A stretch of DNA of 64,000 nucleotides from Giardia intestinalis (GCA_000002435.2 CM018792.1), one strand, 5' to 3'; shown: positions 17,902 through 43,672, counted from the first letter of the stretch. Numbers and translations: made by a program. Notes: a model not told the origin generated them from the letters alone.

Positions 17902-17925
17902 TGTAAATTCCGATCGCAAGTTCAT

Positions 17926-20175: not shown

Positions 20176-20191
20176 TAAACCGTCGTTTACT
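20174..20191. terminator. palindromic paired poly(A) signals AGTAAAC-CGTC-GTTTACT shared by convergent genes (left copy)
   Basis: AGTAAAC overlaps the TAG stop of the ankyrin gene. Its reverse complement serves the convergent small gene copy 4 nt further on. Confidence 0.55.
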
Positions 20192-20582
20192 GGGCGGGGA
20201 CCCCGTAGAGCTGGAGTCCGGTCGTGTAGGCGCCCGAGCCCCCGAAGTTCTCGAGGATCGTGTAGCGCACGAAGCGCGCCACGCGGGGGGACGGAAGGGT
20301 GCACAGGTGGTCTCCGCCCCGGTGCGGGAGGTCCATCTCGGCGAGGGGCTCGGGGCAGGCAGGGTCGGCCCCGCACGCAAAGGAGACGCGCCGGGGGTTC
20401 TGGCTGTTTTCACCGTGGAGGAAGATGCCCACGCGCGTGAGGCAGACCGGCTGGCCCATGTCGATGACGACGTGCTGGGGGAGGGGCGCGTAGACCGACG
20501 TGAACCAGCAGACCGAGGGATCCTGGCGCACAAGGTTCTGGACCCCCGAGTTGTGGTGGTACTGCGAGCTGAAGTCGACCAC
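20187..20582 (-). pseudogene. 5'-truncated copy of the small galactose-binding-like gene (ATG and first 3 codons deleted by a 31-bp junction deletion)
   Basis: Identical to 37544..37981 from …SLLPRNFGVAENGARVVDFSSQ… onward. No in-frame ATG remains upstream. The Sec31-tail frame runs into it out of frame. Confidence 0.55.
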
Positions 20583-20942
20583 CCGCGCGCCGTTCTCGGC
20601 GACGCCGAAGTTGCGGGGAAGCAGAGCGCCCGCGCGATGATCTTTGCTTGACTCAGATAAATAGATATAGATATCTTATGAGTTGTCACTGGCAAATAAC
20701 CAGCACTCGATTAAAAACACGTGGACAGGACAGGGCACAAGTGAGCAGCCAAGGTAGATGTCATATTTATACTAATGGATTGTCCAAAAAGCTACTGTAA
20801 ACAATGCTAAAAAGCCCTAGTAAATAGTCGATTATAAGGTTACAGTAGTACAACCACAGAAGTAAATAATTAGTTATGGAGTGAAATGCATTCACAATTT
20901 GTGACGAATCTATAACGTTCCGCAAATATCTAACGCTTATGT

Positions 20943-21599
20943 CTATTCTTTTTCGATAGACATTGGAATTCTAAGATACACGTTTGTGCTCCAAGAAGGT
21001 AAAGTACGAAGGTCAATTGGAGATGGGAGCAGAGGCTTGCATTCAAATACACGTTGCTTTGAGCTAGGTCGCTTTATGTCAAACGAAAGAGACTCAATGC
21101 GTCGTGCACTCTCTTGAAGCTGTTCGCACCGACTCCACATGGCGTCTGTCGAGTAATCTGCTTGTTTGTCATTCATTGTTGTATATGGCTTGTAACTCAT
21201 CTCGGTAAGCTTTATGAATATACTCATAGCCACGGCACGGCGTTTTTCATCTTCCTTCTCTTGTTCAGATGGGACGTAGTTCTCCAGAATAGAGATGTCC
21301 TTGGACAGTCTCAAAGTCTGTATCTCATCTTGATGTTTTTGCAGTAGAGATGGACGCCTCTCGACCTGAGATTCAAGATTCTTAAGATTGCGTATTCGGC
21401 GCTCTTCTGCTTGCAGCTTTGTCTGTATTTCAATAGGGATCGTTCTATCCTGCGGAGCAATGAGAGTCGGGACAAAGAATGAACTTGAGGATGACGTGCG
21501 ACTTTCAAAGCGGATTGAGTTGAAGTCGGAGTTAGGATCTAGAAAGATCTCCAACGCTCCCAGAAGCCCATTGAGCTCATAGTAGAATTCAGACGTCAT
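20943..21599 (-). CDS. hypothetical protein (~218 aa from MTSEFYY…)
   Basis: ORF with a charged, partly coiled-coil composition. Divergent from the GPN GTPase across a 48-bp AT-rich spacer. Confidence 0.5.
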   Translation of the reverse strand: MTSEFYYELNGLLGALEIFLDPNSDFNSIRFESRTSSSSSFFVPTLIAPQDRTIPIEIQTKLQAEERRIRNLKNLESQVERRPSLLQKHQDEIQTLRLSKDISILENYVPSEQEKEDEKRRAVAMSIFIKLTEMSYKPYTTMNDKQADYSTDAMWSRCEQLQESARRIESLSFDIKRPSSKQRVFECKPLLPSPIDLRTLPSWSTNVYLRIPMSIEKE

Positions 21600-21647
21600 G
21601 GTTGTAGCTGATGGATTAAATTTTTGCCAGCCCATCTACTCCCAGGT

Positions 21648-22400
21648 ATGCATGGAATCTGTTTCTTTGGGTCACCTGGCTCTGGGAAAACGACACTCTG
21701 CCATGCGCTGACACAATTACTCACCTGTATGGACTATGACTGTATTACTATTGATCTGGACCCCTCCTCTCTTGAAGAAGATTGCTACGATATATCTATT
21801 AAAGATTTAGTCACAGCTAATGAAGTTCAGGACTTGGAAGGTCTTGGACCCAATGGGGCTATCCTCTATAGTATGGAATTTCTCAAAGAGAATGTGCACT
21901 GGCTGAGCACACAAATCTCCACCTTAGCCGGTACGTCCCCCACGAAAAGGCAATTTCTTCTCATTGACTTTCCGGGACAAGTGGAATGCTACATGGCATA
22001 CGATACCATTGACTCTATCCTAACTCACTTGCTTGTTGACCACAAGCACAACCTTTGCGGCCTTCTGCTCACCGAGGCATTTAACCTGTTAAATCCCCGT
22101 TCTCTTCTCTCTGCGGGACTATCTATAGCTGCACAACAAGTTTCCTTGGGGATTCCTGTACTGGCAGTGGCATCCAAGGGTGACTTACTTAGTGCAGACC
22201 AGCAGGCATCACTCATTAAGTGCTTAGAAACGGGAATCATTAATGTGGTTTCTTCCTTGCATAGGGTCCGCTCTTTCCATCTAGCAATGGCAGAGTTTTT
22301 AGATGCCAATCTAAGTCTTCTCCCTCTCCCTGTCTCAGTAGATAATGAAGGAGCTCTTCAACTTCTTCTTCAGGAGGTTACCCGGATACTAGGCATGTGA
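21648..22400 (+). CDS. GPN-loop GTPase (XAB1/GPN family), ~250 aa from MHGICFFGSPGSGKTT
   Basis: P-loop GSPGSGKTT at the N-terminus, then the diagnostic GPN motif (GLGPNGAILYSMEF), with spacing and length as in GPN2/GPN3. Confidence 0.8.
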   Translation: MHGICFFGSPGSGKTTLCHALTQLLTCMDYDCITIDLDPSSLEEDCYDISIKDLVTANEVQDLEGLGPNGAILYSMEFLKENVHWLSTQISTLAGTSPTKRQFLLIDFPGQVECYMAYDTIDSILTHLLVDHKHNLCGLLLTEAFNLLNPRSLLSAGLSIAAQQVSLGIPVLAVASKGDLLSADQQASLIKCLETGIINVVSSLHRVRSFHLAMAEFLDANLSLLPLPVSVDNEGALQLLLQEVTRILGM

Positions 22401-22476
22401 CAGGCAGTGGAGTAACTGTAAATCGGCAGAATGCTTTCTCACAATGCATGACTGATTTCCGAAATCCAAAAAACTG

Positions 22477-25400
22477 ATGGCTGAAACATGGTTTGCTGCA
22501 GCAAAGAAAGCGGACTATGGCACAATACGATCACTAGGTTCAAAGTATTTTAAAGTACACAATGAAAGCGATGATGGAAATACTGCATTACTTTACGCCA
22601 TCAGTTCTAGCAACATGCAACTAATTTCTTACCTAGCTCCTCACGAGGTTCGTGAAACTAATATATTCGGGTGGAATGCACTGATGTTTGCAGCGTATTT
22701 TGACAATCACGACGCTGTGAAGCTCTTCTTAAATGATGAAAAGGGGATGCAAACGCGGGAAGAGTACAAAGGAATCCCAGCAGGAGCAACAGCGCTTCTG
22801 ATAGCTGCTACCCGAGGACATGCGGGTTGTGTCTCCTTGCTATATCCTATGGAGCAATCCACTAGCGGCTGGAATGATCTTTTTCTCGCTGCGTTTACGC
22901 ACAATGCTGCTCTTGTGGCACGCACCATCTCCTTAGTTTCCACACGTGATGCTCTTGGACGCACAGCAATGATGTATTTAGTTATGTTTCCTCGGCACTC
23001 AACCCTTGTGCTTCTGGAGGAGTGCATAGGGTATTTGGCTCAAGCACAGCAAGGTGCCATAGATGCTTGCACTAAGACAGCACTGATGTATGCTGCAGAA
23101 AACAATAATGCAGACGCCGTACAGTTGCTGCTCCAATTAACCACCCTAGAGGCCAGAAAGCAGATGGAAACAAAAGATGAATATACTGCTCTAATGATAG
23201 CTGCTTCGAGAGGCTATAGTGACATAGTCTTGCAACTGCTTCCTAAGGAAGCAGGGATAGTGACTTCCAATGGGGTCACAGCACTTATGTTAGCTGTTCG
23301 CTACAATCAAATTGAGGCTGCACGCTTATTAAAGGACGCTGAAGCAGAATTTCAAACGTCTGGCCCGTTTGATGTCTTTTCTCCAGCAGCCACAGCCTTT
23401 AGTATTGCACAGTACTATCACCGGCAAGAGCTTCTTTCTCTGTTGGGAGCAGGGTCTTTGCAGTTAACAAATACAGAAGAGAACATCACCACTGAAGACT
23501 CAGCAAGGTTAGTTCAGTCTCCGAAGGGTGTAACTGCATCGAGTGCCCTGGCTTTTCAGCAAAAAAGCTACATGCAATCACCAACTACTGAGGATGCCCG
23601 AGTAGCGACAATGATTAGTCCTATTTTTAACAGCAATATCGATATTTCACGACCAACACCGACTAATCATTCCAAAGAAGAACCTCAAGATAACGATCAG
23701 CTGGTTCTCACTGATACGCAAACAGTTGCAATTTTATCGAATACAGAGGCACTAGAACGACTGAAGGAAACCAACCAAGACTTAGCTACACGCGTTTTCA
23801 CCATGCAGAGATCCATGCAGTTAGAGTCTATTGAGCAACAAAACACTATCGATAAACTAGACATAGAACTAAGCTTAACCCGGCAAAGACAGACCGAGTT
23901 GGAAAGTAAGCTGAAGTTGGCAGAAGAGAAAATCACCATGTACAAAGATTATTCACAGCAAGCATATAAGCACAACGAGTCTCTATCAAAGAAATACGCT
24001 GAATTAAAGGAGTCCCATGATTCCCTCGTCAAGGAGAATGCCCAGTTGTCCGATAGTTTGGCCTCACTGAAATCGGAAAAGGCCTCTCTTGAAACAGTGC
24101 ATAAGGATCTAGCTGTCTTGTTTGACGAGCTTCAGCGACAAATAAAGGCAGACAAAAGTGCAGCAGACTCTCATATAACTAAGTATTCCAACGAAGTTCT
24201 AGCTCTGCAGCAAGATCTCAGCGAAACGAAGCAGGCTCTTGCAGCAGCTCAAGCTGCAGCGCATAGCAAGGACCAAGTTGCAAGCTCAGTAACTGAAGAG
24301 CTCTCGCAACTGAAGCCTCGTTATCAGGATTTAACGAGAGAAATATCAGATTTAAGAGCTAAGTACGAAGAGGCGGTCACCCATAGTAATACTATACAAC
24401 AAGAAAACAACTTATTAAAAGATAACTTTGATAAAGCTACAAGTTCGCTGACCTCACTTAAAGAAGAAAACATATGTATGCAAAAGCGGCTGGCGGAAGC
24501 GGAGGCAATCAACGCTGAACTTCATACTACAGTGACCGATCTCAACAAGGCAAAAATTTCCCAGACCCTAGAGTGTGAAAAACTGAGCGAACAAACTGCG
24601 GGGATGGAGGACCAAGTGCAGGGCTTGCAGCACTCTCTCCATAAAGCAACCAGCGAAGTGGAGTCATTGAATAGTCGTCTAGCAGAGCAAACCCTTGAGT
24701 CTCAAAACTTACGCGCCAGTATTGATCAGCTCCAGAAGGATCTTGTTTCTTTAGCTAACGAAAAAGACATTTTACAAACTCAACTATGCGCAGACCAGGA
24801 GCGTCTTGCTATTACAAGATCAGAGCTTTCAGCTGCTCGTCAAAAGGCGCTTGCGTTAGAAGAAACTCTCGATGTGAGATCTTCAGACCACAAAACCCTT
24901 GAGGCTAATTTTCAACGTGTACAATCGCAGGTTGTGGAGCAAACAGAGCTTACCCAGAAAGCTGAATCTGCAAAGGCTGCACTTGAGATAAAGCTAGGTC
25001 TTATTGAACAACAGTTGCTGGAAACTCAACGCGGAGCCAACACCGGGCAGCATGACCTAGCAGCCTTGCGAAGTGAGCTTCAAATTGCAGCGAAGAAGAA
25101 CGAGTGTCTAGAGACTCGCACTGCTGAGCTGGAGACCGCTGCAGATAATCTAAGTAAGGAGAAGGCAACGTTGGTAGCTAAGCTGCAAGATATCACAGAA
25201 GAAAGGGAGTCCTTGAAAGAACAATTGAATGCCTTTTCTTTTCAGCTAGAGCAATTACAAAGTGATAAATCCGCTTTGGAGCATCAGGTCTCTGATCTGC
25301 TTGCTGTCATTTCCCAGGAACAAGAGACCCAGGTCTCCCTCAAGAAGCAGATCATCGAAGCGGGCAGGAGGTCAGCAGAACTTGATGAGGAAGTTCTCCG

Positions 25401-28400
25401 ACTCAAAGATAAGCTAGACAAGGCAATAGACGAAGCGTCTACTCTAACTTCTAAACTTGCTAGTTCTGAAGAAGACAATGCAAAGACCGAAGCAAAATTT
25501 GCAAATTTGTCTAAAGAACGGAATTCTTTATTTAAGGAGCTCTCAACGGTATCTAAAGAGCTCTCAGACCTCAAGTTGGCCAATGCATCTCTCGAGAAGG
25601 ACGCGCAACTTGCACAGCAAAAGCTCAAAGAAGCTAATGTTTCAAAGAAATCGCTGGAGCAGAGCAGTAGCAACTCTTCCAAGAAAATAGCAAGTCTCTC
25701 AAGCGCGAAGACGTCTCTCGAGAAACAGCTATCCACCGCCAACGCGCACATCTCTGACTTGGAAAGTCAACTAACCGCGTTAGAGAAAAGAGATTCCGAA
25801 GCAAAGCAGGTCCTGTTAGCAAAGGAGAAAAACATTACTGAAGCAAACCGTAGTGTCTCCCAATTAAAACGCCAGCTTAAGGATATAAGGGCAGATAACG
25901 AAACAGCTCAAAACAACGTTATTGCGCTTACAAAAGAACTGACGTCTCTTCAGCTTTTGAAGGACCAGACGGACGCCACAGTGGCAAAGCTTACTAAAGC
26001 TGTTGCAGACGAAAGGGAGAAGAATGAAAGCTTGAGCAAACAACTGAATGAGGCAAATGGGCAAATATCTACTTTACAGAGTGCTCAAGACAGCATAGAG
26101 CTAGCACGTCTGTCAGCTACTGATAGAGTTGAAGCGCTTCTTTCGGAGAACAAAGGCCTCGGTGAACTAATAACAGACCTCAAGACTATAATATCGAGAA
26201 CCCAAAACATGCTCCAGGAAATGACCGATGAGAAAAATAACGCACTCGAAAGGTTAAAGCAAGCTGATAGCAAGATTGCCACATATGCACTCGATCAACA
26301 GACAACTAAAGCATCTGTGGATCAGCTCCGAGCAGATCTCAGTACGATGGAGGGAGCAAACAGGCAGCTTCAAAAAGATATTGTTATCCAGACAGAGCTC
26401 TGTGAGGACCTCGAAAGAAAAAATAACCAATTGAGCAAACAAATTTCTGAGTTGATAAAATGTCAAGCTGCGTTAGAAGAGCAATTACAAAGCAAGGATG
26501 CAGCTTTCACTGAAGAGCAATCGGCACGAGATGCTCTTCAGCGCGAATTGTCTTTGGCCGACAAAAGGTATCAAGATCTTCAAGAGGAGCACGTGGAGCT
26601 AAAGCAGGCGCTTGCAAATAAAAGGATTGACATTGAGCAGATGAGTAACTCCAAACTGTCTGCTGATGCAGCTCTCCAAAAAGCTATGGAGAAATGTTCT
26701 GCGCTTCAGGCAGAGGTAACCCTAGGCCAGAAGAGTATCGAATCAATGGCTCAGCATATTAGGGTGCTTGAGAATGAGATAGACAGACTTAAAGAAAAGA
26801 ATGCAAGCATATTTGGAAGCTTGTCACAAGCCGAGGCGTCAAGTGAAAGCTTAGAACGAGAGCTCAAGGCAGCTAAAAGGAAAATTGCAGAGCTCGAGGA
26901 GCATGGTCTGGAGGTCGAGCAGGGACAAGAGCGCATATTTAAGGGCTTGCAAACGGTTACAGGAGAAAAAGATGTTATTGAGCGGAGGCTCAAGGAAAAA
27001 ACGCAATTAGCTGAAGAGCAACATGCAGAGCTGGAGGCCTTGAAAAAAGCACTTGCAGCTAGCAACGAGCTAAATACGGATTTAACCTCCAATTCTGAAA
27101 GTAGTGTTAAAAGCATTCAGCAGCTCTCTAGACAATTAGCCGAATCCCAAGGAGAAATTGCAGGACTGAAGCGAGGTGCAGAGCTGACTGCTCGTAGGTT
27201 GTCAGAGCTGGAGGCCTTATGCGATGACCAGGCAAAGGTAATTTCGGTGAAAACTAGTACTACTACTGAGCTACAGACGGAAAGGGACCTTCTTTTTAAA
27301 AAGTTGGCTGCATGCACAGCTGCATCCACAGAGATCGAAGACACTTTAACAACGATGCAGAAAGAATACTCGGATCAATCCAGAAAGCTTATGGAGCTAG
27401 AGGCAGATAACTTGACTCTTCAAAGAACCGTCTCATCCTCTGAAAAAGCTATCGAAGATCTTAACGTAGCTCTTATGGCTGCAAACCAAGCTGCAGACGA
27501 AAGTGGAAGGAAGATTTTAGACTTGGAAGGAAGACGCGAGATTTTAGAGCGTTCGCTGGCACATGTCAACAAGCGGAATACAAGCTTAGAGGCGGAAAAG
27601 GAGCAACTAGCCAAGAATTTAATTGAGGCAAATCGATGTATGACCGATGCCGAGCTCGAGCGAAACACCCTCACAAGGGAGAATGCGTCTCTTCGAGCTG
27701 CAGCTGCTGAGCTAGAAGGAAAGCTATCGACGTCTGCCACAGCATTAGCCGGGAAGACTGCTGCCGTACTAGATTTGGAAAATCAAGTTGAACTGCTGAC
27801 TCATGAGCGTTCGGACCTAATGGCTTTGAAATTAGAACTTGAAGCCGAGCGAGATTCACTGCAGGTACGTGTAAAGATGCATGCAGAGACCATTGTGGAG
27901 ATGGAGAAAAGCAAGGCCGATACTGAGCAGCTTCTAGTCACTACAAACACTAAGCTTGTTGAGCAGGAAATGGCCTTTCAAACAGCTGAGAGAACACTAA
28001 AGACTCTGAAGGAGAAAGTTAGATTGACGAAACAGGAAAAGACTGCAGCTCTCTCAATTCAGGCAGATCTCAAAAGTGAAATTGCAACTCTTTCAGAGAC
28101 TATTAAGACATTAGAAGATACCGTCAACAGCCTTACCAAGCAGATATCAGAGCGTGATCGTGATAATGAAAGCCTTCGAACAGTTGCCAACGGGCATAGA
28201 TCGAACGAAGAAAAAGCTCTGGAAGAGGTTGAGCGGCAACGGAATATTATTCTCGACTATCAGCAGCAAGTGAGCCAAGCAAGCCTTGAGCAATTGGCAC
28301 TGACACAAAAGATCGACCAGGAAAAGAAAAAGGTTGTTGATGCCATGGCATCTAAGGAAGGACTACAAGATGACCTTCAGGCCCTTCAGAAACGCTATTC

Positions 28401-30453
28401 TGAACTCGAAACAGAGTATGATGCCATAAAAAAGGCACTAGCTAGTAATAACGCTACAATGGAGAAGCTAACGCTTCAGTGCAGTAGCTTGACTGCTGAA
28501 TTAAGTACTTTGAAACTACAATATAATAGCACACGCGTTGAACTGGAATCAGCCCAGATGTTAGTAGAAGCAACAAAAAAGGGTTCTGCGTCTTTGCAGG
28601 GAGAAATAGACAAGCTCACACGTGATCTTCAACAGGCAAACGAAGCGAATTCTCAGCTACGTGCTGAGCAGAACGTCCTTCAGCAGTCCTTGGACAACGC
28701 CAATGCAAGCCTCAACGCCCTTGTCACTCAGGGCGAGACTTTGTCCAGGGCCACTGCAGATAGCAATAAGAAACTCCACGACTATATGAGCGAACTTACT
28801 TTGAAGAATAACGAGGTTGACTCTCTTAAGAGATTACTAGCTCGGAAAGAAGCAGATCTTGAGGAGGTGCATACCCGCATAACTAGTAAGATAGAGGAGA
28901 TAAGTCAGTTGTATTCAGATAAGGAACAGGCAGAGGCACAGATCTGTGTGCTGCTTTCGGAAAACTCTGATCTGAAAATGTCAATAAGTGCCTTAACTTC
29001 TACTTTAGACTCCCAAAAACAACTTGTGAAGGATTTAGAAGGAGAGCTTATCTCGGCTCATGGTGAGTTAAAGAATACCTCTTCTGAAGTAGGACGACTG
29101 GAGCTGGAGCTTCAAAATCTCAGAGGCGATAATAAAGATAGCCATAATCGAATAGAAACACTCAATCAGCAAATGATATCTTATGACAAACAGATGGCTA
29201 GCATAGCAGAAGAAAAAGAGGGTCTTCTGAAGTTAGTTTCCCAGCTTAAGTTGACAATCAATGAACTCACGTTAGCAAAACAAGAGCTTGGCGCTAGCTT
29301 AGCCACTGAAAAGATGGCATCTCTAAAACTGGCATCTGAAAATGATGACCTGCTAAAGCGCTTAGAGTCCGGGCGGGCTGCCTATGAAGAGCTATCTGCA
29401 GAACACAAGAGTCTATTAGAAAGATACCATACTTTGAACTCTATGAAGGAGTTAGCAAATACCGAGCTAAATGCTTTAAGAAGCACAGCAAATATGTCAA
29501 AAGCGGACATAGATAAATTCTCTGCAGAGTACGAGCGATTCAGAGCCAAAGCGTCACAAGATCGGGCGGTTATCGTAAAGCTGCAAAGTGACCTTGAGAA
29601 GCTAGAGAGTAAGAATAAGTTCTTACTCGATGAAAAAACTCAGTGCACAAAGATTATAAAGAATCTAAACAAGGACATTGTAGACTTAAAGCTGCAATTG
29701 CATTCGCTTGACCAGTCCAAGGAAAGTGCTACTCGCAAGCTCTCCGTGCTCGGAACTGATAAGGAAGCTCTCATCAAGGAGGTTGATAGCCTTAGGAAGC
29801 AGACCTGTGATCAAGAGCATTTGATCCACGAACTCCAGAAACAATCTAAGGAGACTGAACGTCTTAAAGAAGACCTTGCACATATGAATACGACAATGGG
29901 AGAATTTGCAGATATGTATGCAGTAACGATTAATAAATATGCGGATGCCATGCGTCACCATGATGATATCTCCAAATTCATGCCGAAATACAATACATAC
30001 ATGTCTGACGCCGGGCTGATGACGGATGCACGTCTTCGACATTTCCTAGAAAACAATAAGGCGCTTCTAGATGAAAAGGCATTAGTCGAACGCAAATTCA
30101 AGCGACTAAGCGAATATGTCAATTATATCAAGGCCGAATTAGTCAACACAGACATGAAATATTTGGCATGGATCCAGCACAAAACAGCTGTGTTCAATAG
30201 GTCCGTGGCAAATGCTCGGCCTACTTCTCGACCTGACTTCATGACCAAAAGAATTGACGAGCAGGCTCGGCGGCTCTCGACAGCCTTGGAACCAACAGAT
30301 TTCAGCGCATCCGATGAAATGAACATTGAGCGGGCATCGATTGATAGAGCTTCATTGGCTAAGCAGCTACAGGCCTGTGATATTAAGTATGACGCGACTC
30401 GCACTGCTCAATATGATCATTACCCATCACGTCCGAGTAGCCAAAACAACTAA
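22477..30453 (+). CDS. giant ankyrin-repeat + coiled-coil protein (2658 aa)
   Basis: N-terminal ETWFAAAKKADYGTIRS motif, ~8 ankyrin repeats, then >2000 aa of uninterrupted heptad-like E/K/L/Q-rich sequence. Confidence 0.85.
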   Translation: MAETWFAAAKKADYGTIRSLGSKYFKVHNESDDGNTALLYAISSSNMQLISYLAPHEVRETNIFGWNALMFAAYFDNHDAVKLFLNDEKGMQTREEYKGIPAGATALLIAATRGHAGCVSLLYPMEQSTSGWNDLFLAAFTHNAALVARTISLVSTRDALGRTAMMYLVMFPRHSTLVLLEECIGYLAQAQQGAIDACTKTALMYAAENNNADAVQLLLQLTTLEARKQMETKDEYTALMIAASRGYSDIVLQLLPKEAGIVTSNGVTALMLAVRYNQIEAARLLKDAEAEFQTSGPFDVFSPAATAFSIAQYYHRQELLSLLGAGSLQLTNTEENITTEDSARLVQSPKGVTASSALAFQQKSYMQSPTTEDARVATMISPIFNSNIDISRPTPTNHSKEEPQDNDQLVLTDTQTVAILSNTEALERLKETNQDLATRVFTMQRSMQLESIEQQNTIDKLDIELSLTRQRQTELESKLKLAEEKITMYKDYSQQAYKHNESLSKKYAELKESHDSLVKENAQLSDSLASLKSEKASLETVHKDLAVLFDELQRQIKADKSAADSHITKYSNEVLALQQDLSETKQALAAAQAAAHSKDQVASSVTEELSQLKPRYQDLTREISDLRAKYEEAVTHSNTIQQENNLLKDNFDKATSSLTSLKEENICMQKRLAEAEAINAELHTTVTDLNKAKISQTLECEKLSEQTAGMEDQVQGLQHSLHKATSEVESLNSRLAEQTLESQNLRASIDQLQKDLVSLANEKDILQTQLCADQERLAITRSELSAARQKALALEETLDVRSSDHKTLEANFQRVQSQVVEQTELTQKAESAKAALEIKLGLIEQQLLETQRGANTGQHDLAALRSELQIAAKKNECLETRTAELETAADNLSKEKATLVAKLQDITEERESLKEQLNAFSFQLEQLQSDKSALEHQVSDLLAVISQEQETQVSLKKQIIEAGRRSAELDEEVLRLKDKLDKAIDEASTLTSKLASSEEDNAKTEAKFANLSKERNSLFKELSTVSKELSDLKLANASLEKDAQLAQQKLKEANVSKKSLEQSSSNSSKKIASLSSAKTSLEKQLSTANAHISDLESQLTALEKRDSEAKQVLLAKEKNITEANRSVSQLKRQLKDIRADNETAQNNVIALTKELTSLQLLKDQTDATVAKLTKAVADEREKNESLSKQLNEANGQISTLQSAQDSIELARLSATDRVEALLSENKGLGELITDLKTIISRTQNMLQEMTDEKNNALERLKQADSKIATYALDQQTTKASVDQLRADLSTMEGANRQLQKDIVIQTELCEDLERKNNQLSKQISELIKCQAALEEQLQSKDAAFTEEQSARDALQRELSLADKRYQDLQEEHVELKQALANKRIDIEQMSNSKLSADAALQKAMEKCSALQAEVTLGQKSIESMAQHIRVLENEIDRLKEKNASIFGSLSQAEASSESLERELKAAKRKIAELEEHGLEVEQGQERIFKGLQTVTGEKDVIERRLKEKTQLAEEQHAELEALKKALAASNELNTDLTSNSESSVKSIQQLSRQLAESQGEIAGLKRGAELTARRLSELEALCDDQAKVISVKTSTTTELQTERDLLFKKLAACTAASTEIEDTLTTMQKEYSDQSRKLMELEADNLTLQRTVSSSEKAIEDLNVALMAANQAADESGRKILDLEGRREILERSLAHVNKRNTSLEAEKEQLAKNLIEANRCMTDAELERNTLTRENASLRAAAAELEGKLSTSATALAGKTAAVLDLENQVELLTHERSDLMALKLELEAERDSLQVRVKMHAETIVEMEKSKADTEQLLVTTNTKLVEQEMAFQTAERTLKTLKEKVRLTKQEKTAALSIQADLKSEIATLSETIKTLEDTVNSLTKQISERDRDNESLRTVANGHRSNEEKALEEVERQRNIILDYQQQVSQASLEQLALTQKIDQEKKKVVDAMASKEGLQDDLQALQKRYSELETEYDAIKKALASNNATMEKLTLQCSSLTAELSTLKLQYNSTRVELESAQMLVEATKKGSASLQGEIDKLTRDLQQANEANSQLRAEQNVLQQSLDNANASLNALVTQGETLSRATADSNKKLHDYMSELTLKNNEVDSLKRLLARKEADLEEVHTRITSKIEEISQLYSDKEQAEAQICVLLSENSDLKMSISALTSTLDSQKQLVKDLEGELISAHGELKNTSSEVGRLELELQNLRGDNKDSHNRIETLNQQMISYDKQMASIAEEKEGLLKLVSQLKLTINELTLAKQELGASLATEKMASLKLASENDDLLKRLESGRAAYEELSAEHKSLLERYHTLNSMKELANTELNALRSTANMSKADIDKFSAEYERFRAKASQDRAVIVKLQSDLEKLESKNKFLLDEKTQCTKIIKNLNKDIVDLKLQLHSLDQSKESATRKLSVLGTDKEALIKEVDSLRKQTCDQEHLIHELQKQSKETERLKEDLAHMNTTMGEFADMYAVTINKYADAMRHHDDISKFMPKYNTYMSDAGLMTDARLRHFLENNKALLDEKALVERKFKRLSEYVNYIKAELVNTDMKYLAWIQHKTAVFNRSVANARPTSRPDFMTKRIDEQARRLSTALEPTDFSASDEMNIERASIDRASLAKQLQACDIKYDATRTAQYDHYPSRPSSQNN

Positions 30454-30479
30454 TTGCCAGAAGAGACCAGCTATTCAGT

Positions 30480-33400
30480 TCACATACCAATCGTGCGACT
30501 CAGGAGGTCATCTGCGCTCTCCAAGCGTTGTCTTGCCTTCTCTATACATTCGCATGATGCCCCTACTTCATTTCGAATTGACACCAGAGCTTCGGTAGAG
30601 CTCCTTAATCTGCTCTCTAATCCGTGTATTGTGGTTTCACTCTCCTGCTTGAAATTCATTAGAGAAGACTCTGCCTCTGCCAATTGTCTTCTCAGCGACT
30701 TGATCTCCTCGTTACCACCCTCGCGCATAGACTTTAGTTCCATGGACATTATTCTCAGGCTTTCTTCTGAACTTGCATTCTTGGTCATTAGTAGCTTCAT
30801 TTCTTCCTGAAGCGCATCATACTCCTGCAGCAAACACTCTGTTTTGGCTTCTAGTTCGCGCTTTTCTCTTGTAAGTACCTCATTATCTGACACTAATCGC
30901 TGGTGTTTTATCTCAAGAGTTTGTAGAGACGTTCCTTGTTCCAGAAGCTGTCTCTCTTTGAAGCTTAACTCAGCTGTTGAGACGCTTATGTCCTTTTGCA
31001 GATGATCTACTTTATTTTCTAGCAGGGCATTCTCCGTTTTCAATGCTGAAACCTGGGACTCCAAATCATCCATCACTTGCAGTTGTGCTCTAAGATCTTC
31101 TAGTTCCTCCTCCCTACGCTTTATACTAGTGTTGTTACGTAAGTCCTCCTGATCCTTGGCTTGGCGAAGGGCCTGCACCTCTTCCTGAGCTGCGTGGAGC
31201 TGCTTCGTTGTAAGGTCTAAATCGGCTGTTAATTTAGATATCTGTTCGCTAAGAAGCATATTCTGCCTTCTTTCCTTTTGAACAGATTCCTTGTAAACTA
31301 AAACTTTATTCCTAAGCTCAGAAAACTTTGCGTCAAAAACTCGTGTCTCTTGTAGGTTCTTGTCCAATTCATCTAAAAGCGTCGACTCTGCTCCTGCATT
31401 TGAACCACCCTGTACTTTATTATCAAATTGGCAGATGGACGATTTCAGTAACGTTAGTTCGCCCTCCAAGGCTGTCAGTGTCTTATTAAGGGAACTATCT
31501 GAATGTACGTTTGATTGTCCGCTCTGTCCAGTTGCTCCAGGTGTTCGGAGCAATGAAAGAATGCTTTCTATAGCCTTTAGACGATTGTTTGTCTCTTCTA
31601 GTTTAGAAATAATAAATCCATCCTGCTGGGTATGTGTCGAGTTTTGATTAAAAGTTCGGTGTTCCGGGGACGTTAGAATGGCATCCTCAGCGACTCTGTG
31701 TTGTTTGAGGATAGCATTTTCACGCTCTAGCTCGCTAATCTTCTGTTGCAGCCCCAAGAGTTCTAAATTACTATTTAGCGCTCCCTGAGCATTGTCAATA
31801 GACAGCTGAGAGTTTGAGCCAAGAGATGCCTTGAAAGCAGCGCCTGTTGTGTCCACCGTTGATCCACTAATGAGATCATTTATAAACAAATCGGGATGCT
31901 TGAGGACCTCTCGTTGTCGAAGAGCTATTAACATCGAGGAGATTTGTTGCACTAGGCCTTCATGTACAGACAACTTAGTTGTAATGTCATCTATTTTCTG
32001 TTGAACAGCTACATGAGAGGTCGTAAAATGAGATTGAAGCTCGTATATCGCCGGATAAATGCGGCTCGAAACATCATATCGAAAGACCTGAAGCTCTGTT
32101 GATTTGTCATCCAGGTCTGCCCGTAGGTTCTCCAATTCAATATTAGAATTAGACTGATCTAGTTCTGCATAGTCTGCGTTGGGAGAAGAGTTGGTAGAAA
32201 GGCGCCTAATTATGTTCCCCACATCATTATGCACCTGTTCACGTGCCAGCTGTTGAATCGTACTGTCTTTTTCTTTTTCTAATTCTTGAATGTAGTTCTG
32301 GTTTTGCGTAATGGTCTTCCTAGCTTGATCCAACTCAGACCGCAGCTCTACTACGTTAGCGTCCACGGACTGCAGCAATGCTATCTTTTTATCAGCCTCG
32401 TAAAGCTTTCTATTTAGTACAGCATTTTCTATTTCTAACTGAAGGCGTGAGTCGCGTTGGCTTTTTGCTGACCATGGTGTTGATTGAGCCACCAAACTCC
32501 CGTCAACATGCAAGCTCGAGTGCTGTTGAGATGTCCGTTCGCTTAATTCTTTATAATTCTGGGAGTCACTAATGTTCTGTTTGCGCCCAGTTAGCTCTGA
32601 AACGGTCATTGGTCTTGTTGGAGATTCAACAGATAGGCTCCCTGTGAGAACTGCCGACTTCGGTCTTCCAGAAACATTGTGAGATAGAGAGAAGTTGGAT
32701 TTCCTTGAAAGTAAAGCGCTATCATCAAAACTTTCTTGCTGCGCTCCAGAAAGACGCATTACTGAAGATGTGTAACTGGCCTTTGCTGTTATTGCGTCTC
32801 CCCGGCCAGTAGGTGTTGATATGGGGATTATTATCGGTTGCGTATAGGGTTCGGTTCCTTGGAAAGGAGGAGAGGAGCCTCGAGATATAAGCCCTAAGGG
32901 TCTATTAGATCCTTTAAGCTGATGATCGGATGAACTACCATAGAGAGACGAATAAATTAGAGACCCATCAATTCGTCCGAGAGATCGAAGAGGGATGGGG
33001 AAGGCAGTGCCCTGACCCGGTTCATTACCTATAGTCTGGAGAAGTGAGACAACTTCTTGTCGCCCACATTGCTTAGCTATTGTCAAAGCAGTGGAGCCAA
33101 CTGGAAACTCGGCCGTTGCGGAAACCGTAGAGAAACTATTTTCATATGGAGCCAGAAGCTTACATATTTCTAAGTTACCAAGGCTTGCAGCAAGCATCAA
33201 GGATGTGATTCCAGACTGGGTTGTGCGACCAATTTCATAGCGCGATAGCATATCGCAAAGGGTGTAGTCTTCCATCTCGACCGCAAGCATAAGGGCTGTC
33301 TTCCCCGCTACAACTGTTCCATTATCTGTTTCATCATATGTGTGCTTATTTATCTCAGTAGTGGTTAGGTCAAGAAGATAGCGCACTGCATCTCGATGTC

Positions 33401-34055
33401 TAGCTGTGACCGCATACATAAGCGCCGTTTTCCCATAAGCATCCTGTGCCCCTTCTTGCGTCCGAATTAAGAGTTTGATGCAGCGTCCTAAATCGTGTCG
33501 CGCCAGAGTATCGCGACGGTGCATTACAAGATACATTAAGGGGGTGCGGTTATAATTATCTCTCGGGGCCACAGATGTGAGCAAGCCAGGGTCACTAGAA
33601 AACGCGGTGTTTAGTGCTCCAAAGTCAACATTGTACGCGGCAAGGAAAAGAGGGGTCCAGCCACTAAGCTCTGCCTCTCGGTCATAAAGAAGCTTTACAA
33701 TTTGATCATGCCCATGCGTAGCAGCAAGGAGAAGAGCAGTGGTGTTAGGTTTATAAGGAGAAACCGTAGTCAACGTCCTAAAGCCTGCCTCATGAGGAAA
33801 TAGGGTTTCCACAATATCTGTAAAGCCATTCTTCGCTGCACTCATAAGCGAAGTCCATCCCTCCGGAGTTGTCAGGCGCTTTTCATGGGATAGTAGAAGT
33901 TTGACGATACTGAGGTTATGTGTCTCTGCTGCCTTCATCATCGCTGTCTGATAAGGAGGGTTAGGTTCTGTACGCTTTGCATTGCTCAAATAGTTTCTAG
34001 CAATGAAACGTACATCTCCATTAGCGGCTGCGTTGAACCACGGGTCAACGTTCAT
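30480..34055 (-). CDS. ankyrin-repeat + coiled-coil protein (1191 aa), convergent with the previous gene
   Basis: N-terminal DPWFNAAANGDVRFIA motif, ankyrin repeats, an S/T-rich linker, then a long coiled coil. Only 26 bp separate the two stop codons. Confidence 0.85.
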   Translation of the reverse strand: MNVDPWFNAAANGDVRFIARNYLSNAKRTEPNPPYQTAMMKAAETHNLSIVKLLLSHEKRLTTPEGWTSLMSAAKNGFTDIVETLFPHEAGFRTLTTVSPYKPNTTALLLAATHGHDQIVKLLYDREAELSGWTPLFLAAYNVDFGALNTAFSSDPGLLTSVAPRDNYNRTPLMYLVMHRRDTLARHDLGRCIKLLIRTQEGAQDAYGKTALMYAVTARHRDAVRYLLDLTTTEINKHTYDETDNGTVVAGKTALMLAVEMEDYTLCDMLSRYEIGRTTQSGITSLMLAASLGNLEICKLLAPYENSFSTVSATAEFPVGSTALTIAKQCGRQEVVSLLQTIGNEPGQGTAFPIPLRSLGRIDGSLIYSSLYGSSSDHQLKGSNRPLGLISRGSSPPFQGTEPYTQPIIIPISTPTGRGDAITAKASYTSSVMRLSGAQQESFDDSALLSRKSNFSLSHNVSGRPKSAVLTGSLSVESPTRPMTVSELTGRKQNISDSQNYKELSERTSQQHSSLHVDGSLVAQSTPWSAKSQRDSRLQLEIENAVLNRKLYEADKKIALLQSVDANVVELRSELDQARKTITQNQNYIQELEKEKDSTIQQLAREQVHNDVGNIIRRLSTNSSPNADYAELDQSNSNIELENLRADLDDKSTELQVFRYDVSSRIYPAIYELQSHFTTSHVAVQQKIDDITTKLSVHEGLVQQISSMLIALRQREVLKHPDLFINDLISGSTVDTTGAAFKASLGSNSQLSIDNAQGALNSNLELLGLQQKISELERENAILKQHRVAEDAILTSPEHRTFNQNSTHTQQDGFIISKLEETNNRLKAIESILSLLRTPGATGQSGQSNVHSDSSLNKTLTALEGELTLLKSSICQFDNKVQGGSNAGAESTLLDELDKNLQETRVFDAKFSELRNKVLVYKESVQKERRQNMLLSEQISKLTADLDLTTKQLHAAQEEVQALRQAKDQEDLRNNTSIKRREEELEDLRAQLQVMDDLESQVSALKTENALLENKVDHLQKDISVSTAELSFKERQLLEQGTSLQTLEIKHQRLVSDNEVLTREKRELEAKTECLLQEYDALQEEMKLLMTKNASSEESLRIMSMELKSMREGGNEEIKSLRRQLAEAESSLMNFKQESETTIHGLESRLRSSTEALVSIRNEVGASCECIEKARQRLESADDLLSRTIGM

Positions 34056-34447
34056 TTTGATTTTTGAGTAAATAGAGCTTGCTTCTTACAGGAACAACTG
34101 GTACCACTACAACGCGCTACTTCACTCCTGTGGGTTTTCTTTGATATCGAGAGCAATATCTTGTGTGACAAATGCGTCACAAGCTGTTGGACCAGTGCTC
34201 TGAGTAATCTGAGAAATAGACCAAGAGATCGTTCATGATTCCTTAAAGACCTCTTTCTAGTTAAAGTAAATAACATATTTACGGAGATTGATGTTCTAAG
34301 GTACATGTGGAAATACATCATCATCTAAAAGCAACCAGTATTCCTGCCTGCCTCAAAGATCCACTGTGTGTTATACACCAGAGTAGTGGGTCTTACGCGG
34401 TGCATATTAGAGCGTCGTAGATAAACACATTAAGTTATTAAAAAATA

Positions 34448-37400
34448 ATGCGGTTATTCAGTCTGCAGGAATGTGGACACCTGGCCTGGTCCCCTGTTAG
34501 CATGCAGTTTGCCTTGGCTACGTCAAGTGCAAACATAACTGAGACATTTGTCAGTGAGACTTCGCTCTCTGTTTATTCTTTGGACATTGACTCCGTTACG
34601 CCTGTCCGTGAGTTCAGCTGGCCGTTTGCGGCAGAATTCACATGTCTCCTCTGGAGCACAAGCGATAGTATTATAGCAGGATTCGAGGATGGATCTCTTT
34701 CTATAGGTCCATGGAATGATATGGGAAATGCAATACGCCTGCAAGCACACAATGCAGCTTTGTCGGCTCTTTCATGTTCAGAGGCATATTCACTCCCCCT
34801 CCTAGCAACGGGGTCTGCCACAGGCGAAGTATCATTTTGGGATCTCAATACTCGCGCCCTTTGGCATGCAGTCAAGAGCCGTGAAGGGGCTGCAGCACAC
34901 CATGGTGCGATTGTGCAAATCAGTTGGAACCCTAAAGTGCCAAGAATATGCTGCACTGCTTCTCAGGATGGCACTGTCAGCATATGGGACATGGACAAAA
35001 AGGGTGGTCTTATGAGCCTTCGTGGAGATGACACGCCTCTTGTTTCAGCTCTCTTTAGTCCCGATGTGGCGACTGTTGTGTTTACTGTCAACACTGCGGG
35101 CCTGGTTTCCATGTGGGACTTACGGCAAAAGACACATCCTGTCTCAACCAGCCGTCTTCAGTTACCAGCTAATGTAGTCCCTGAATCCATGTTTATCCAT
35201 CAATACGAAAAAACCTTCCTTTATATTCCGACCAGTGATGGGAAGTGCTTTTTCTTTCTTCCTAAGCAGACAGACCTGGTCTTCATGGGTTCGATCGATA
35301 GCATTGGTACACATATTAATGCGTCGCCTTTTTATCCTGGCTATTTCCTCTCGCAAGTGTGCGATCCGGTGCAATTTTCTTCAAAAACAGAAGGGCATTT
35401 CCTTCCTTCTCTGATTCCGTTACCTCTGCTTTCCGAGCATGTAGAATTGTTACCTTCACCTGTTCTTCTCCACCCTCTTTTTTTGTTTGCGGAAAACTGT
35501 CCCGAAGACATTTCGGACAACTATGATTTTGCTCCGCGTGCAATAGTAAGCATTGATTCCCATAATGTTATGATAGATGGAAAACAGCGACAGAGCATGG
35601 AGGGGCTGTTTTCGCTGACACAAGTTCGCGACGCGGGAGCTGTGCTGTCTCAAATAGAGCACGTGCTTGCTGTTCCTATTGATGCCCATTCTTGCCCTTT
35701 GCCGTTGCACACTGATCTCTCTCTTCAACCACCAGACAAGATCTTTCGTGCTCTTCTATCCGCTGGATCGTCTGGAATTTTGTCTTGGCTTACCAGTACC
35801 GAGGCCTCTTCAAAGATAAATTTTGTTAAGCAAGTTGTGGCACACCCCGCGTCACAGCCTGTGGTAGCTTCTGATGGAAGAGACTTCTTTGATGATATCC
35901 AGAATTCCTTCCCCGACTCCTTTCCCGAGAATGAAATTCTCGAACCTTCTGTTTCTGCATCCGATAGGTTTTCGTCGTATTATTCATTTTTGTATAACAA
36001 CGATCTGGAGTCTGCGGCAGCTTATGCAGCCAACAGTGGAGATTTTGGGTTAGCCTTCTACATTGCTTCCAAGAAAAGTAATAAGGAGCTCCTAAACTCT
36101 GTGTCAGACTCTTTTAGGAAAGCAATGAAATCCAACTTCATAAAGGCTGTTGATAGCATGGAGACAGGTTATGCAGCTATCATAGAGTGTCTTCCGCCAG
36201 AAAACTGGTTCTATCATCTAAAAATTGCTGCCTCATATGGTGGCGAACAGGCAATACGAGAAGTCGCTGCAACTCTCTTGCAGAGGTCTACTAGCTTTTC
36301 GCCATCTTTATTGACCGCATTAACAATATTGGCGGGACGCATTCCAGAAGCCTTTGAGTTGGCTGCGTCGACATCAAGCCTTTTAGATACACTAGTTATG
36401 GGTCTCCTCTGTGTGTCGCAGGGAGTGTCGATGACGGGTGGCGGTGTCTTTAGAATCCTGGAGGGGCTAGTCGATATTGTTGTTTCACAAGGTGATGAGA
36501 ATCTTGCAGCAACGCTTCGTGGTAAGTTTTCTCTTAACAAGTCAAATCTAACGCCTCAAAGTGCCCCATTTGTGGAAAAAATCCAGGAGAAGGGGGCTCC
36601 TCTGAGTTCTACAACACATACAAAACAAGGGCGTCGTAGTCGAGCTTCTACTATACCACAAGTAACTGGTAATACCCTACTACCTCCACAACTTGCTACT
36701 GCGTCTCTGTTTTCTGGGCCTGCTCCACCTGCGCCAATTACGGCATCTATCGCCCCAGGAATGTCATCAACTCAAACTTCGGTACCGTTAGCAGTGCCCC
36801 CTATGTCTTATACTACTCCGGCTCAAACCGCTTCTTCTTTCCCTGCTGTTCCTCAAATTGCTTTGAATTCAGCTATTACACCACCGATACCTCATATACC
36901 AATGGCACAACCATCTGTTCAACCTCAGTCAGCTGTTTTACCTCTCGAAAGCCCGCAGACTCCCATCTTGTCAATAGCTCAACCGCCTTCAGTGATATCA
37001 GCCCCTTCCGTTAGACTACCACAGGCAGAGGTACCACTTGCTGCTCCTCCGTCTATTACAGCTCCTGCGCCCCCAACAGTTAATGGAGCAATTTCTACAG
37101 AAGTTGTGCAAGTAACTACAACAACAGCGCCACAGGCCCGAGCGCCACGTCGTCAACCAACTCAGTCATTATCGGCGGGCCAACCTTATGATGTAATTCA
37201 TAATATCGCGACAAACGGATCAGCAAATGCAGAGAGATTTAAGGCACTTGTTTTACGCTATGCTGATGTTGATCAATTGGGATTTTTGAAATATTACACG
37301 AAGCTAGGCGATTGTATTATTCATCTTGCAGAGCAAGGGGTGCTTTCAGCAGACACTATTAGTGTCCTTGGACGGTACATTGCTGGACTGGAAATGGGAA

Positions 37401-37522
37401 ATGGACAGGCTGCAACGGAGGCTATAAAAGGTATGGCAGCGCGCAAGCAGCGTCTCTACACTGAAGAGCTTTCTACGTGGGCCGCACCGCTGAAGATCAT
37501 GGCGCGGGCGCTCTGCAAGTAA
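34448..37522 (+). CDS. SEC31: Sec31 (COPII outer-coat subunit), 1024 aa
   Basis: The N-terminal WD40 propeller aligns with the Sec31 N-terminus (…AWSP…LATG..…S.WDL…IIAG.EDGSLS…). This is followed by an alpha-solenoid, a ~200-aa proline-rich segment and a conserved C-terminal domain. Confidence 0.7.
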   Translation: MRLFSLQECGHLAWSPVSMQFALATSSANITETFVSETSLSVYSLDIDSVTPVREFSWPFAAEFTCLLWSTSDSIIAGFEDGSLSIGPWNDMGNAIRLQAHNAALSALSCSEAYSLPLLATGSATGEVSFWDLNTRALWHAVKSREGAAAHHGAIVQISWNPKVPRICCTASQDGTVSIWDMDKKGGLMSLRGDDTPLVSALFSPDVATVVFTVNTAGLVSMWDLRQKTHPVSTSRLQLPANVVPESMFIHQYEKTFLYIPTSDGKCFFFLPKQTDLVFMGSIDSIGTHINASPFYPGYFLSQVCDPVQFSSKTEGHFLPSLIPLPLLSEHVELLPSPVLLHPLFLFAENCPEDISDNYDFAPRAIVSIDSHNVMIDGKQRQSMEGLFSLTQVRDAGAVLSQIEHVLAVPIDAHSCPLPLHTDLSLQPPDKIFRALLSAGSSGILSWLTSTEASSKINFVKQVVAHPASQPVVASDGRDFFDDIQNSFPDSFPENEILEPSVSASDRFSSYYSFLYNNDLESAAAYAANSGDFGLAFYIASKKSNKELLNSVSDSFRKAMKSNFIKAVDSMETGYAAIIECLPPENWFYHLKIAASYGGEQAIREVAATLLQRSTSFSPSLLTALTILAGRIPEAFELAASTSSLLDTLVMGLLCVSQGVSMTGGGVFRILEGLVDIVVSQGDENLAATLRGKFSLNKSNLTPQSAPFVEKIQEKGAPLSSTTHTKQGRRSRASTIPQVTGNTLLPPQLATASLFSGPAPPAPITASIAPGMSSTQTSVPLAVPPMSYTTPAQTASSFPAVPQIALNSAITPPIPHIPMAQPSVQPQSAVLPLESPQTPILSIAQPPSVISAPSVRLPQAEVPLAAPPSITAPAPPTVNGAISTEVVQVTTTTAPQARAPRRQPTQSLSAGQPYDVIHNIATNGSANAERFKALVLRYADVDQLGFLKYYTKLGDCIIHLAEQGVLSADTISVLGRYIAGLEMGNGQAATEAIKGMAARKQRLYTEELSTWAAPLKIMARALCK

Positions 37523-37531
37523 ACCCATAAA

Positions 37532-37981
37532 ATGGCCGGGTCTCTGCTTCCCCGCAACTTCGGCGTCGCCGAGAACGGCGCGCGGGTGGTCGACTTCAGC
37601 TCGCAGTACCACCACAACTCGGGGGTCCAGAACCTTGTGCGCCAGGATCCCTCGGTCTGCTGGTTCACGTCGGTCTACGCGCCCCTCCCCCAGCACGTCG
37701 TCATCGACATGGGCCAGCCGGTCTGCCTCACGCGCGTGGGCATCTTCCTCCACGGTGAAAACAGCCAGAACCCCCGGCGCGTCTCCTTTGCGTGCGGGGC
37801 CGACCCTGCCTGCCCCGAGCCCCTCGCCGAGATGGACCTCCCGCACCGGGGCGGAGACCACCTGTGCACCCTTCCGTCCCCCCGCGTGGCGCGCTTCGTG
37901 CGCTACACGATCCTCGAGAACTTCGGGGGCTCGGGCGCCTACACGACCGGACTCCAGCTCTACGGGGTCCCCGCCCAGTAA
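37532..37981 (+). CDS. small conserved protein (149 aa), possible galactose-binding/discoidin-like fold (IFT25-like?)
   Basis: Intact ORF with ATG 9 bp after the Sec31 stop. Size and a …VCW……NFGGSGAYTTGLQLYG… pattern are reminiscent of small discoidin-type domains. This assignment is speculative. Confidence 0.4.
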   Translation: MAGSLLPRNFGVAENGARVVDFSSQYHHNSGVQNLVRQDPSVCWFTSVYAPLPQHVVIDMGQPVCLTRVGIFLHGENSQNPRRVSFACGADPACPEPLAEMDLPHRGGDHLCTLPSPRVARFVRYTILENFGGSGAYTTGLQLYGVPAQ

Positions 37982-37994
37982 ACGACGGTTTACT
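37977..37994. terminator. palindromic paired poly(A) signals AGTAAACGACGGTTTACT (right copy)
   Basis: Overlaps the TAA of the small gene on + and sits 1 nt from the stop of the ankyrin gene on -. Confidence 0.55.
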
Positions 37995-40242: not shown

Positions 40243-40266
40243 ATGAACTTGCGATCGGAATTTACA

Positions 40267-42313: not shown

Positions 42314-42324
42314 CAAAATTATAA

Positions 42325-43665: not shown

Positions 43666-43672
43666 TCAAAAA

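Follow-up and report, generated by a model that had tools for sequence, protein, structure and literature searches.

The 64,000-nucleotide (nt) stretch of Giardia intestinalis chromosome sequence CM018792.1 (GCA_000002435.2) analysed here, referred to below as the window, contains two nearly identical 8.3-kb arms in inverted orientation, enclosing a unique spacer of some 16.9 kb with the genes for Sec31 and a GPN-loop GTPase. The locus is best explained as an old inverted segmental duplication, homogenised by recombination between its arms, whose spacer can be inverted by non-allelic homologous recombination (NAHR) and has probably been flipped between assemblages; we give this reading a probability of about 0.6.

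The proposed sequence of events would begin with an ancient inverted segmental duplication, which placed two six-gene, 8.3-kb arms on the same chromosome. Repeated gene conversion from arm to arm would then have held the arms nearly identical. Because the arms are inverted relative to each other, any crossover between them inverts what lies between, so that a conversion resolved as a crossover would turn the 16.9-kb spacer round and leave its genes undamaged; the spacer would thus be the invertible segment of an NAHR-type system. At least one such flip probably took place while the assemblages diverged: in strain WB the order is polE-arm-GPN...Sec31-arm-17354 (polE being the DNA polymerase epsilon gene and 17354 the hypothetical gene GL50803_17354), as against 17354-arm-GPN...Sec31-arm-polE in assemblages B and E. 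One orientation would predominate in the WB-C6 clone, and flips would likely be rare on laboratory timescales. Two elements of this scenario are inferred, namely the crossovers that would go with the conversions and the reality of the difference in orientation between assemblages.

Structure of the inverted repeat

The window belongs to G. intestinalis WB (ATCC 50803), and was taken from the 2,761,001-bp chromosome sequence of the 2020 PacBio reference (proteins KAE8304264-KAE8304283). An initial repeat search returned a single inverted pair, 12339-20633 / 37535-45829, of 8,295 nt, with 16,901 nt separating the arms. Base-by-base comparison and BLAST refined the arms to 12339-20626 / 37542-45829, that is 8,288 nt each, with three internal mismatches (at 13110, 13225 and 18831 in left-arm coordinates) and one more at the outer edge (12341). 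Apart from this pair, neither the repeat search nor BLAST found any repeat in the 64,000 nt. The parts of the structure are the following.

12339..20626, left arm, 8,288 nt, 67% GC (repeat search and BLAST, with a GC step at both edges)
20627..20645, on the GPN side of the spacer, 19 nt left over from the 3' end of Sec31, with 2 mismatches to 37492-37510
20627..37541, unique spacer, 16,915 nt ungapped, 43-46% GC, the segment that an arm-arm crossover would invert
37511..37541 (+), 31 nt found on the Sec31 side but not on the GPN side, made up of the stop codon of Sec31, some intergenic sequence and the start codon (ATG) of a 149-amino-acid (aa) open reading frame (ORF)
37542..45829, right arm, equal to the left arm in reverse complement apart from 3 internal mismatches (repeat search, BLAST and GC step)

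A preliminary description of this DNA had spoken of 8.3-kb inverted arms around a spacer delimited by 20645 and 37492. The 8,288-nt arms with their three internal mismatches bear this out, and the two limits are accurate as well, being the ends of the short homology 20627-20645 / 37492-37510 that extends past the inner edges.

This 19-nt remnant is the leftover of a longer ancestral repeat. A 31-nt indel parts the right arm from the extended homology: the GPN-side copy of WB has a 31-nt deletion adjoining a GCAGAG direct repeat, and the deletion takes the ATG of a conserved 149-aa ORF, whose start codon is left only in the right arm. In strain GS the repeat is 8,345 nt long, 57 nt longer than in WB, and takes in the last 12 codons of Sec31. 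Since the GS repeat reaches into Sec31 and the GPN-side copy of WB has lost 31 nt, the Sec31-side arm is the parental copy at the inner edge.

The duplication in independent assemblies

It could be supposed that the second arm is a false duplication made by the long-read assembler, given that the 2007 WB assembly had one complete arm only and that its polE contig stopped 223 codons into the zinc-finger gene at the outer end of the arm. However, all four junction types are present in independent short-read data. In six WB-type contigs, assembled from short reads of different runs, the sequence breaks off at 37571, 30 nt (k-1) into the right arm; two polE contigs end at 12363-12371, 24-32 nt into the left arm, and arm-only contigs of exactly 8,288 nt occur among the short-read assemblies. 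Strains P15 and GS each have a junction of polE with the zinc-finger gene and another of 17354 with it, and zinc-finger copies with distinct C-termini and flanks are found in WB, P15, GS and DH (although the two GS tails are both of the 17354 type). An assembly artefact is therefore hardly conceivable and is effectively refuted.

The few differences between the WB arms are likewise genuine and recent rather than polishing errors. The left-arm alleles at 13110 and 13225 are tied to polE in an independent WB-type short-read contig, while the right-arm alleles at 13110 and 18831 are common to the AII contigs, and that at 13110 also to P15.

One contig, from run SRR14213833 (window 4127-17971), behaves unlike those of the other runs. 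It proceeds from polE across the outer edge and 5.6 kb into the arm unbroken, has the left-arm alleles at 13110 and 13225, and ends at 17971 without evident cause.

Age and concerted evolution of the arms

The repeat recurs, with identical gene content, in assemblage E (strain P15), in assemblage B (strains GS and BAH15c1) and in read sets of AII type. The GS arm beside 17354 (AHHH assembly) and the GS arm beside polE (ACGJ assembly) differ at 1 of 8,345 nt, with the proviso that arms in draft assemblies may be the consensus of collapsed copies, and assemblage-B short-read contigs also pass unbroken through the arm. Between lineages, in contrast, the identity of orthologous arms is 87.9% for WB and GS and 92.7% for WB and P15; overall, the arms diverge more slowly than the spacer. 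Arms that are identical within a genome and diverged between lineages point to a repeat older than the assemblages and homogenised separately in each lineage, which in turn implies continuing arm-to-arm recombination. The inverted segmental duplication thus predates the split of assemblages A, B and E, and its arms recombine with each other and evolve in concert.

The presence of only three differences in 8,288 nt would also be expected if the duplication were recent and the arms were identical through youth, not homogenisation. The comparison between assemblages makes this very improbable, and to all appearances already refutes it: A, B and E, which are no more than 70-87% identical in their single-copy DNA, all have the repeat with identical gene content and almost unchanged edges, lineage-specific substitutions are common to both arm copies, and the inner edge has been eroded in a lineage-specific way.

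As for an outgroup, a search with LST8 (an arm gene, see below) gave no Giardia muris locus, and no arm genes lie near the only distant Sec31 contig found (SRR31929897, 10,015 nt, uniformly 65% GC). The Sec31 encoded by this contig is 30% identical to the WB protein and is followed by unrelated genes; the contig presumably comes from a distant Giardia-like source.

Orientation of the spacer in different lineages

The order polE-arm-GPN...Sec31-arm-17354 of the WB reference agrees with the 2007 Sanger assembly of WB, whose proteins are numbered in the sequence 17354, zinc finger, ..., 17351, ..., Sec31, the orientation of the window. All five arm-crossing contigs from assemblages B and E link the spacer in the opposite way.

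ACVC01000153, strain P15: Sec31-arm-zinc finger-polE
ACGJ01000948, strain GS: Sec31-arm-zinc finger-polE
AHHH01000111, strain GS: 17354-zinc finger-arm-GPN...Sec31
JXTI01000107, strain BAH15c1: 17354-zinc finger-arm-GPN
ERZ21878060 NODE_562, assemblage-B short-read metagenome: 17354-arm-GPN, with 191 nt beyond the inner edge on the GPN side and 457 nt beyond the outer edge on the 17354 side

It should be noted that the two GS assemblies give complementary junctions. We hold it rather probable, from the agreement of these contigs, that assemblages B and E truly carry the inverted isomer.

Several points weigh against this reading. At least three of the five contigs were built from reads too short for an 8.3-kb arm: the P15 assembly was made with MIRA from unpaired 454 reads, which could not span repeats according to its authors, the 2009 GS assembly was made from unpaired reads of 250 nt (Franzen et al. 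2009, PMC2723961), and NODE_562 comes from a short-read metagenome. Because the arms are identical, both isomers give the same short-read data, and the paths taken by an assembler may be arbitrary. If the paths were arbitrary and independent, all five would oppose WB with a chance of 1/32; BAH15c1 may have been assembled with GS as a guide and so not be independent, which would make chance agreement likelier than that. Among the data examined there is no read or clone spanning a whole arm in both orientations. Finally, the synteny breaks published for GS and P15 do not include this locus, and the published GS inversion primers do not map to it.

A rival explanation is a static palindrome, in which conversion proceeds without crossover, one orientation is present everywhere, and the opposite linkages are arbitrary assembler paths. 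The draft contigs do cross one arm and then stop some 200-800 nt inside the other, as would be expected from greedy assembly of a collapsed repeat; the P15 and GS authors describe their reads as unpaired and short; and the DH assembly breaks at all arm edges instead of crossing any. However, the five contigs from B and E agree mutually as well as opposing WB, and the junctions from the two GS assemblies are complementary. In addition, a fraction of the conversions between inverted repeats in yeast mitotic recombination resolves as crossovers and, on this general knowledge, not a single flip over the time needed for 12% divergence would be unlikely. We consider the static palindrome less probable than a spacer that has flipped.

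A further alternative, the strong form of what the preliminary description proposed, is that both isomers coexist at appreciable frequency in a clonal culture, whether they are divided over the four genome copies of a cell or over its two nuclei. In its favour, variants of gene order coexist at other GS loci, as demonstrated by polymerase chain reaction (PCR) (PMC2723961), and nanopore reads predicted 162 inversions, with a mean of 19.4 kb, within the AWB isolate (Pollo et al. 2020, PMC7048089). On the other hand, the same isomer appears in the PacBio reference of WB and in the gene order of the 2007 Sanger assembly, and three arm differences persist, two of them tied to polE in an independent WB-type run, which suggests that exchange is not very frequent. 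The analogous yeast system is reported to be stable on laboratory timescales (PMC9731477); that parts of the supplements of Pollo et al. make no mention of these genes carries little weight. Mixed orientations within one strain have no support yet, and we regard their coexistence as quite improbable.

No WB-type Logan contig spans an arm: all of them break at the arm edges or cross one edge only, as identical arms do not allow short reads to phase the orientation. The length of the zinc-finger tail was considered as a marker of orientation and discarded, because the tails follow the outer flanks in either orientation and both GS tails are of one type.

As regards the preliminary description, its proposal that recombination between the arms inverts the spacer stands in so far as the arms evolve in concert and do recombine; for the inversion itself, the opposite linkage in B and E, being based on short reads, is suggestive only. 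The description had also named such an inversion as a possible source of assembly ambiguity, and drafts do break at this locus or cross the arms in conflicting ways.

Four primers, each unique within the window, are available for this locus.

Primer A, 12051-12076, forward: GATGCCAATAAGGTCGCAGAGGCAGC
Primer C, 21113-21138, reverse: GTGGAGTCGGTGCGAACAGCTTCAAG
Primer D, 37331-37356, forward: GAGCAAGGGGTGCTTTCAGCAGACAC
Primer B, 46062-46087, reverse: ATGCGGGGTAGATTGTAGCCCTGACG

Genes of the locus and effect of an inversion

A Pfam scan of ORFs from arms, spacer and flanks returned CHY zinc-finger, WD40, ankyrin, GPN-loop and related domains, and left four arm or spacer ORFs without a match. Each arm contains six genes, encoding a CHY zinc-finger protein, an LST8/Pop3-like WD40 protein, a hypothetical protein of 446 aa, a hydrophobic protein of about 270 aa, GL50803_17351 and an ankyrin/coiled-coil protein.

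Arms:
12314..13510 (-), CHY zinc-finger protein, left copy, 398 aa, stop codon beyond the arm, tail GIEYDDK*
44658..45842 (+), CHY zinc-finger protein, right copy, 394 aa, tail QTG*
13545..14495 (-) left and 43673-44623 (+) right, WD40 protein, LST8/Pop3-like TOR-complex subunit, 316 aa
14503..15843 (-) left and 42325-43665 (+) right, hypothetical 446-aa protein
15852..16667 (+) left and 41501-42316 (-) right, hypothetical hydrophobic protein of about 270 aa
16609..17901 (-) left and 40267-41559 (+) right, hypothetical protein GL50803_17351, 430 aa in the current annotation
17926..20175 (+) left and 37993-40242 (-) right, ankyrin-repeat and coiled-coil protein, about 739-749 aa

Spacer:
20943..21635 (-), conserved 230-aa ORF at the GPN end, with orthologous ORFs in GS and BAH15c1
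21624..22400 (+), GPN-loop GTPase (Pfam ATP_bind_1, E = 6e-35)
22477..30453 (+), ankyrin/coiled-coil protein, 2,658 aa
30480..34055 (-), ankyrin-repeat protein, 1,191 aa
34448..37522 (+), Sec31, 1,024 aa, KAE8304275.1

Outer flanks:
4204..11976 (+), flank A, DNA polymerase epsilon (polE) catalytic subunit, GL50803_23064
45793..48270 (-), flank B, hypothetical protein GL50803_17354

Inversion of the spacer would leave all of these genes intact. Neither inner arm edge falls within a gene; the stop codon of Sec31 ends at 37522 and the arm starts at 37542. Public contigs containing Sec31 end 2-18 nt past the stop, at 37524, 37527, 37532 and 37540, and two of them run into Illumina adapter; these contigs appear to be transcript-derived, and would place the 3' end of the mRNA at about 37524-37540, before the arm edge. 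At the outer edges, the stop codons of the zinc-finger genes lie in the flanks, which remain joined to the arms after inversion. Since the inner edges stay with the spacer ends and the outer edges with the flanks, a crossover alters long-range linkage only. The preliminary description was thus correct in stating that both isomers keep every gene whole, with inner edges free of genes and Sec31 transcripts that stop by 37540, and also in assigning Sec31, the GPN-loop GTPase and two ankyrin/coiled-coil genes to the spacer, to which the 230-aa ORF at 20943-21635 (-) is to be added.

The two CHY zinc-finger copies differ by the substitutions A96T and L134P and in their C-terminal tails (GIEYDDK* on the polE side and QTG* on the 17354 side), the latter because the stop codons sit outside the arm edges. 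In GS both copies have the 17354-type tail, and the outer repeat edge must therefore have shifted too. The WD40 protein has its best non-Giardia matches in fungal LST8 proteins (30-33% identity), and its gene is in all likelihood the LST8/Pop3 orthologue, present as two identical copies in all the assemblages examined. One of the two copies of GL50803_17351 is tagged GL50803_00d17351 in the annotation, where the letter d in a WB locus tag stands for a duplicated gene according to the naming rule of the 2020 reference (PMC7000408).

The arms as a GC-rich island

The most notable new point is that the edges of the repeat coincide exactly with a large step in base composition. At all four arm edges (12139-12539, 20426-20826, 37342-37742 and 45629-46029) the GC content changes between about 0.40 and about 0.73 within 200 nt. 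The GC content at third codon positions (GC3) is 0.79-0.85 in the arm genes as against 0.39-0.46 in the genes of spacer and flanks, and first- and second-position GC is raised too. On account of the 67% GC, the arms were suspected to be ribosomal DNA, a candidate that was rejected: no Rfam family reached the threshold and no tRNA was found in the window.

The direction of substitutions in WB and P15 was inferred with GS as the reference point. At third positions, changes from AT to GC are similar in arms (0.12-0.15) and spacer (0.15). For changes from GC to AT, in contrast, the fixation rate is 0.057-0.088 in the arms as against 0.18-0.19 in the spacer, a 2-3-fold reduction. The arms, and only they, thus have a substitution regime of their own that favours GC. 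The pattern is consistent with GC-biased gene conversion between the arms, with selection on codon usage as the alternative. It should be noted that the equilibrium GC3 implied for the arms, 0.58-0.73, is below the present value of 0.81-0.83, so that GC enrichment is not rising now in the A and E lineages, which speaks against our reading of the locus.

A bolder version of the hypothesis would see in the locus an ancient palindrome of the sex-chromosome type, in a protist without known meiosis, in which frequent GC-biased recombination between the arms built an island of 67% GC from DNA of about 45% GC, and in which the orientation became fixed differently in A and in B/E, or is polymorphic between nuclei. 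Were it right, biased conversion driven by repeats could generally give rise to GC-rich islands in Giardia, and the inversion would serve as a structural marker that also hinders recombination locally, 7 kb from the beta-giardin typing locus. Taken as a whole, we consider this version unlikely.

Other GC-rich sequences occur in the window. The beta-giardin gene, a standard genotyping marker, lies at 52631-53449 (+), 7 kb past the right arm (Pfam SF-assemblin/beta giardin, E = 1e-106), and has a GC3 of 0.89; it is a lone isolated GC3-rich gene, unlike the arms, most likely because of expression-linked codon usage. The start of the window is also GC-rich (64% over the first 2 kb), with a 442-aa GC-rich ORF at 193-1521 (+) that has no Pfam match and, close by, a VSP gene at 1821-3776 (+) (Pfam VSP, E = 7e-39).

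Significance

The idea of a spacer that flips is mechanistically sound and indirectly supported by the concerted evolution of the arms and by the opposite linkage in B and E; this support is suggestive, and the idea is as yet unproven. Much of the background is already known, in that the duplication is annotated, NAHR is textbook matter, and Giardia inversions of this sort have been discussed since 2009.

A practical consequence is that the gene order near Sec31 and polE in Giardia references is not to be trusted unless it comes from reads longer than about 10 kb, because drafts of different assemblages disagree. In addition, the locus is a testable case of concerted evolution, and possibly of inversion by homologous recombination, in an organism whose sex and recombination are debated and whose nuclei might differ. 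The match between the repeat edges and a GC step of 27 percentage points provides a handle on whether biased conversion makes the GC-rich islands that have long been noted in Giardia genomes. Likewise, with the beta-giardin genotyping marker 7 kb beyond the right arm, a difference in orientation between lineages could affect linkage patterns in its neighbourhood.

Comparison with known systems

The locus shares the features of the NAHR-invertible class: long, near-identical inverted repeats surround a unique segment, the repeats evolve in concert (with draft arms that may be collapsed consensus sequences), and the genes would be intact after inversion. Two other classes were considered and rejected. 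A switch operated by a site-specific recombinase, like FLP on the 2-micron plasmid or the bacterial invertons, does not fit, as the scanned ORFs, four of which have no Pfam match, show no recombinase or integrase domain and the repeats are 8.3-kb blocks of genes instead of short sites. Terminal inverted repeats of a transposon or retroelement do not fit either, as no transposase or reverse transcriptase domain was found in the scanned ORFs and the arms occur as two copies in the window, to which the count refers.

The flip-flop isomers of plastid genomes are reportedly present in roughly equimolar amounts within a cell. As in plastids, large inverted repeats are homogenised by recombination here, and the single-copy region between them would invert; unlike plastids, the Giardia locus is nuclear and linear, and nothing points to equimolar isomers.

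The palindromes of human sex chromosomes are said to have arms at least 99.9% identical through arm-to-arm conversion, and the FLNA-EMD inversion at Xq28 reportedly occurs, in an NAHR-type event, between 11-kb inverted repeats. The Giardia locus resembles these cases in having arms at least 99.9% identical, a spacer that NAHR could invert, and arms that evolve more slowly than unique DNA and with a GC-favouring bias. It differs from them in scale and genome context and in its GC contrast, which at 27 percentage points is far larger; moreover, polymorphism of orientation is documented for the human cases and not for the Giardia locus.

Within Giardia, two gene orders, one like that of WB and one rearranged, were found by PCR to coexist in GS and were attributed to recombination between very similar genes 15-30 kb apart; it was suggested that such inversions may be common and may differ between nuclei (Franzen et al. 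2009, PMC2723961). Those cases are alike in belonging to the same species complex and in involving very similar sequences 15-30 kb apart. However, they do not include the present locus, and they concern single paralogous genes (such as those for dipeptidyl-peptidase I, GL50803_28651 and GL50803_22553) and make hybrid genes, whereas the repeats described here are blocks of six genes and inversion makes no hybrid gene. In the more recent literature, the paper on the 2020 reference puts duplicated segments at 6.9% of the WB genome but treats duplications only in general terms, with no inversion reported here (Xu 2020, PMC7000408), the long-read papers on Be-2 and g12a2 give no locus-level detail on this inversion, and the paper on nine PacBio assemblies (Klotz 2023) does not discuss the locus.

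The flip/flop region of Saccharomyces chromosome XIV, 24 kb long, has on either side an inverted repeat of 4 kb whose two copies are continually homogenised (Salzberg et al. 2022, PMC9731477). The region is reported to re-invert repeatedly in evolution, its orientation differing among lineages, while it is stable in the laboratory (PMC9731477). The Giardia locus differs from it in the length of the arms (8.3 kb against 4 kb), in the arm genes, which are of housekeeping type (LST8-like, CHY zinc finger, ankyrin) instead of a sporulation gene family, in the host, a tetraploid binucleate protist without demonstrated meiosis, and in that the second orientation in Giardia is suggested by draft contigs. 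To the best of our knowledge, a sharp GC island such as that formed by the Giardia arms has not been reported for the yeast region. The basic architecture is nevertheless the same in the two organisms: a unique segment with several genes, enclosed by gene-bearing inverted repeats, several kb long, that are homogenised within a lineage (strains and species in yeast) and diverged between lineages.

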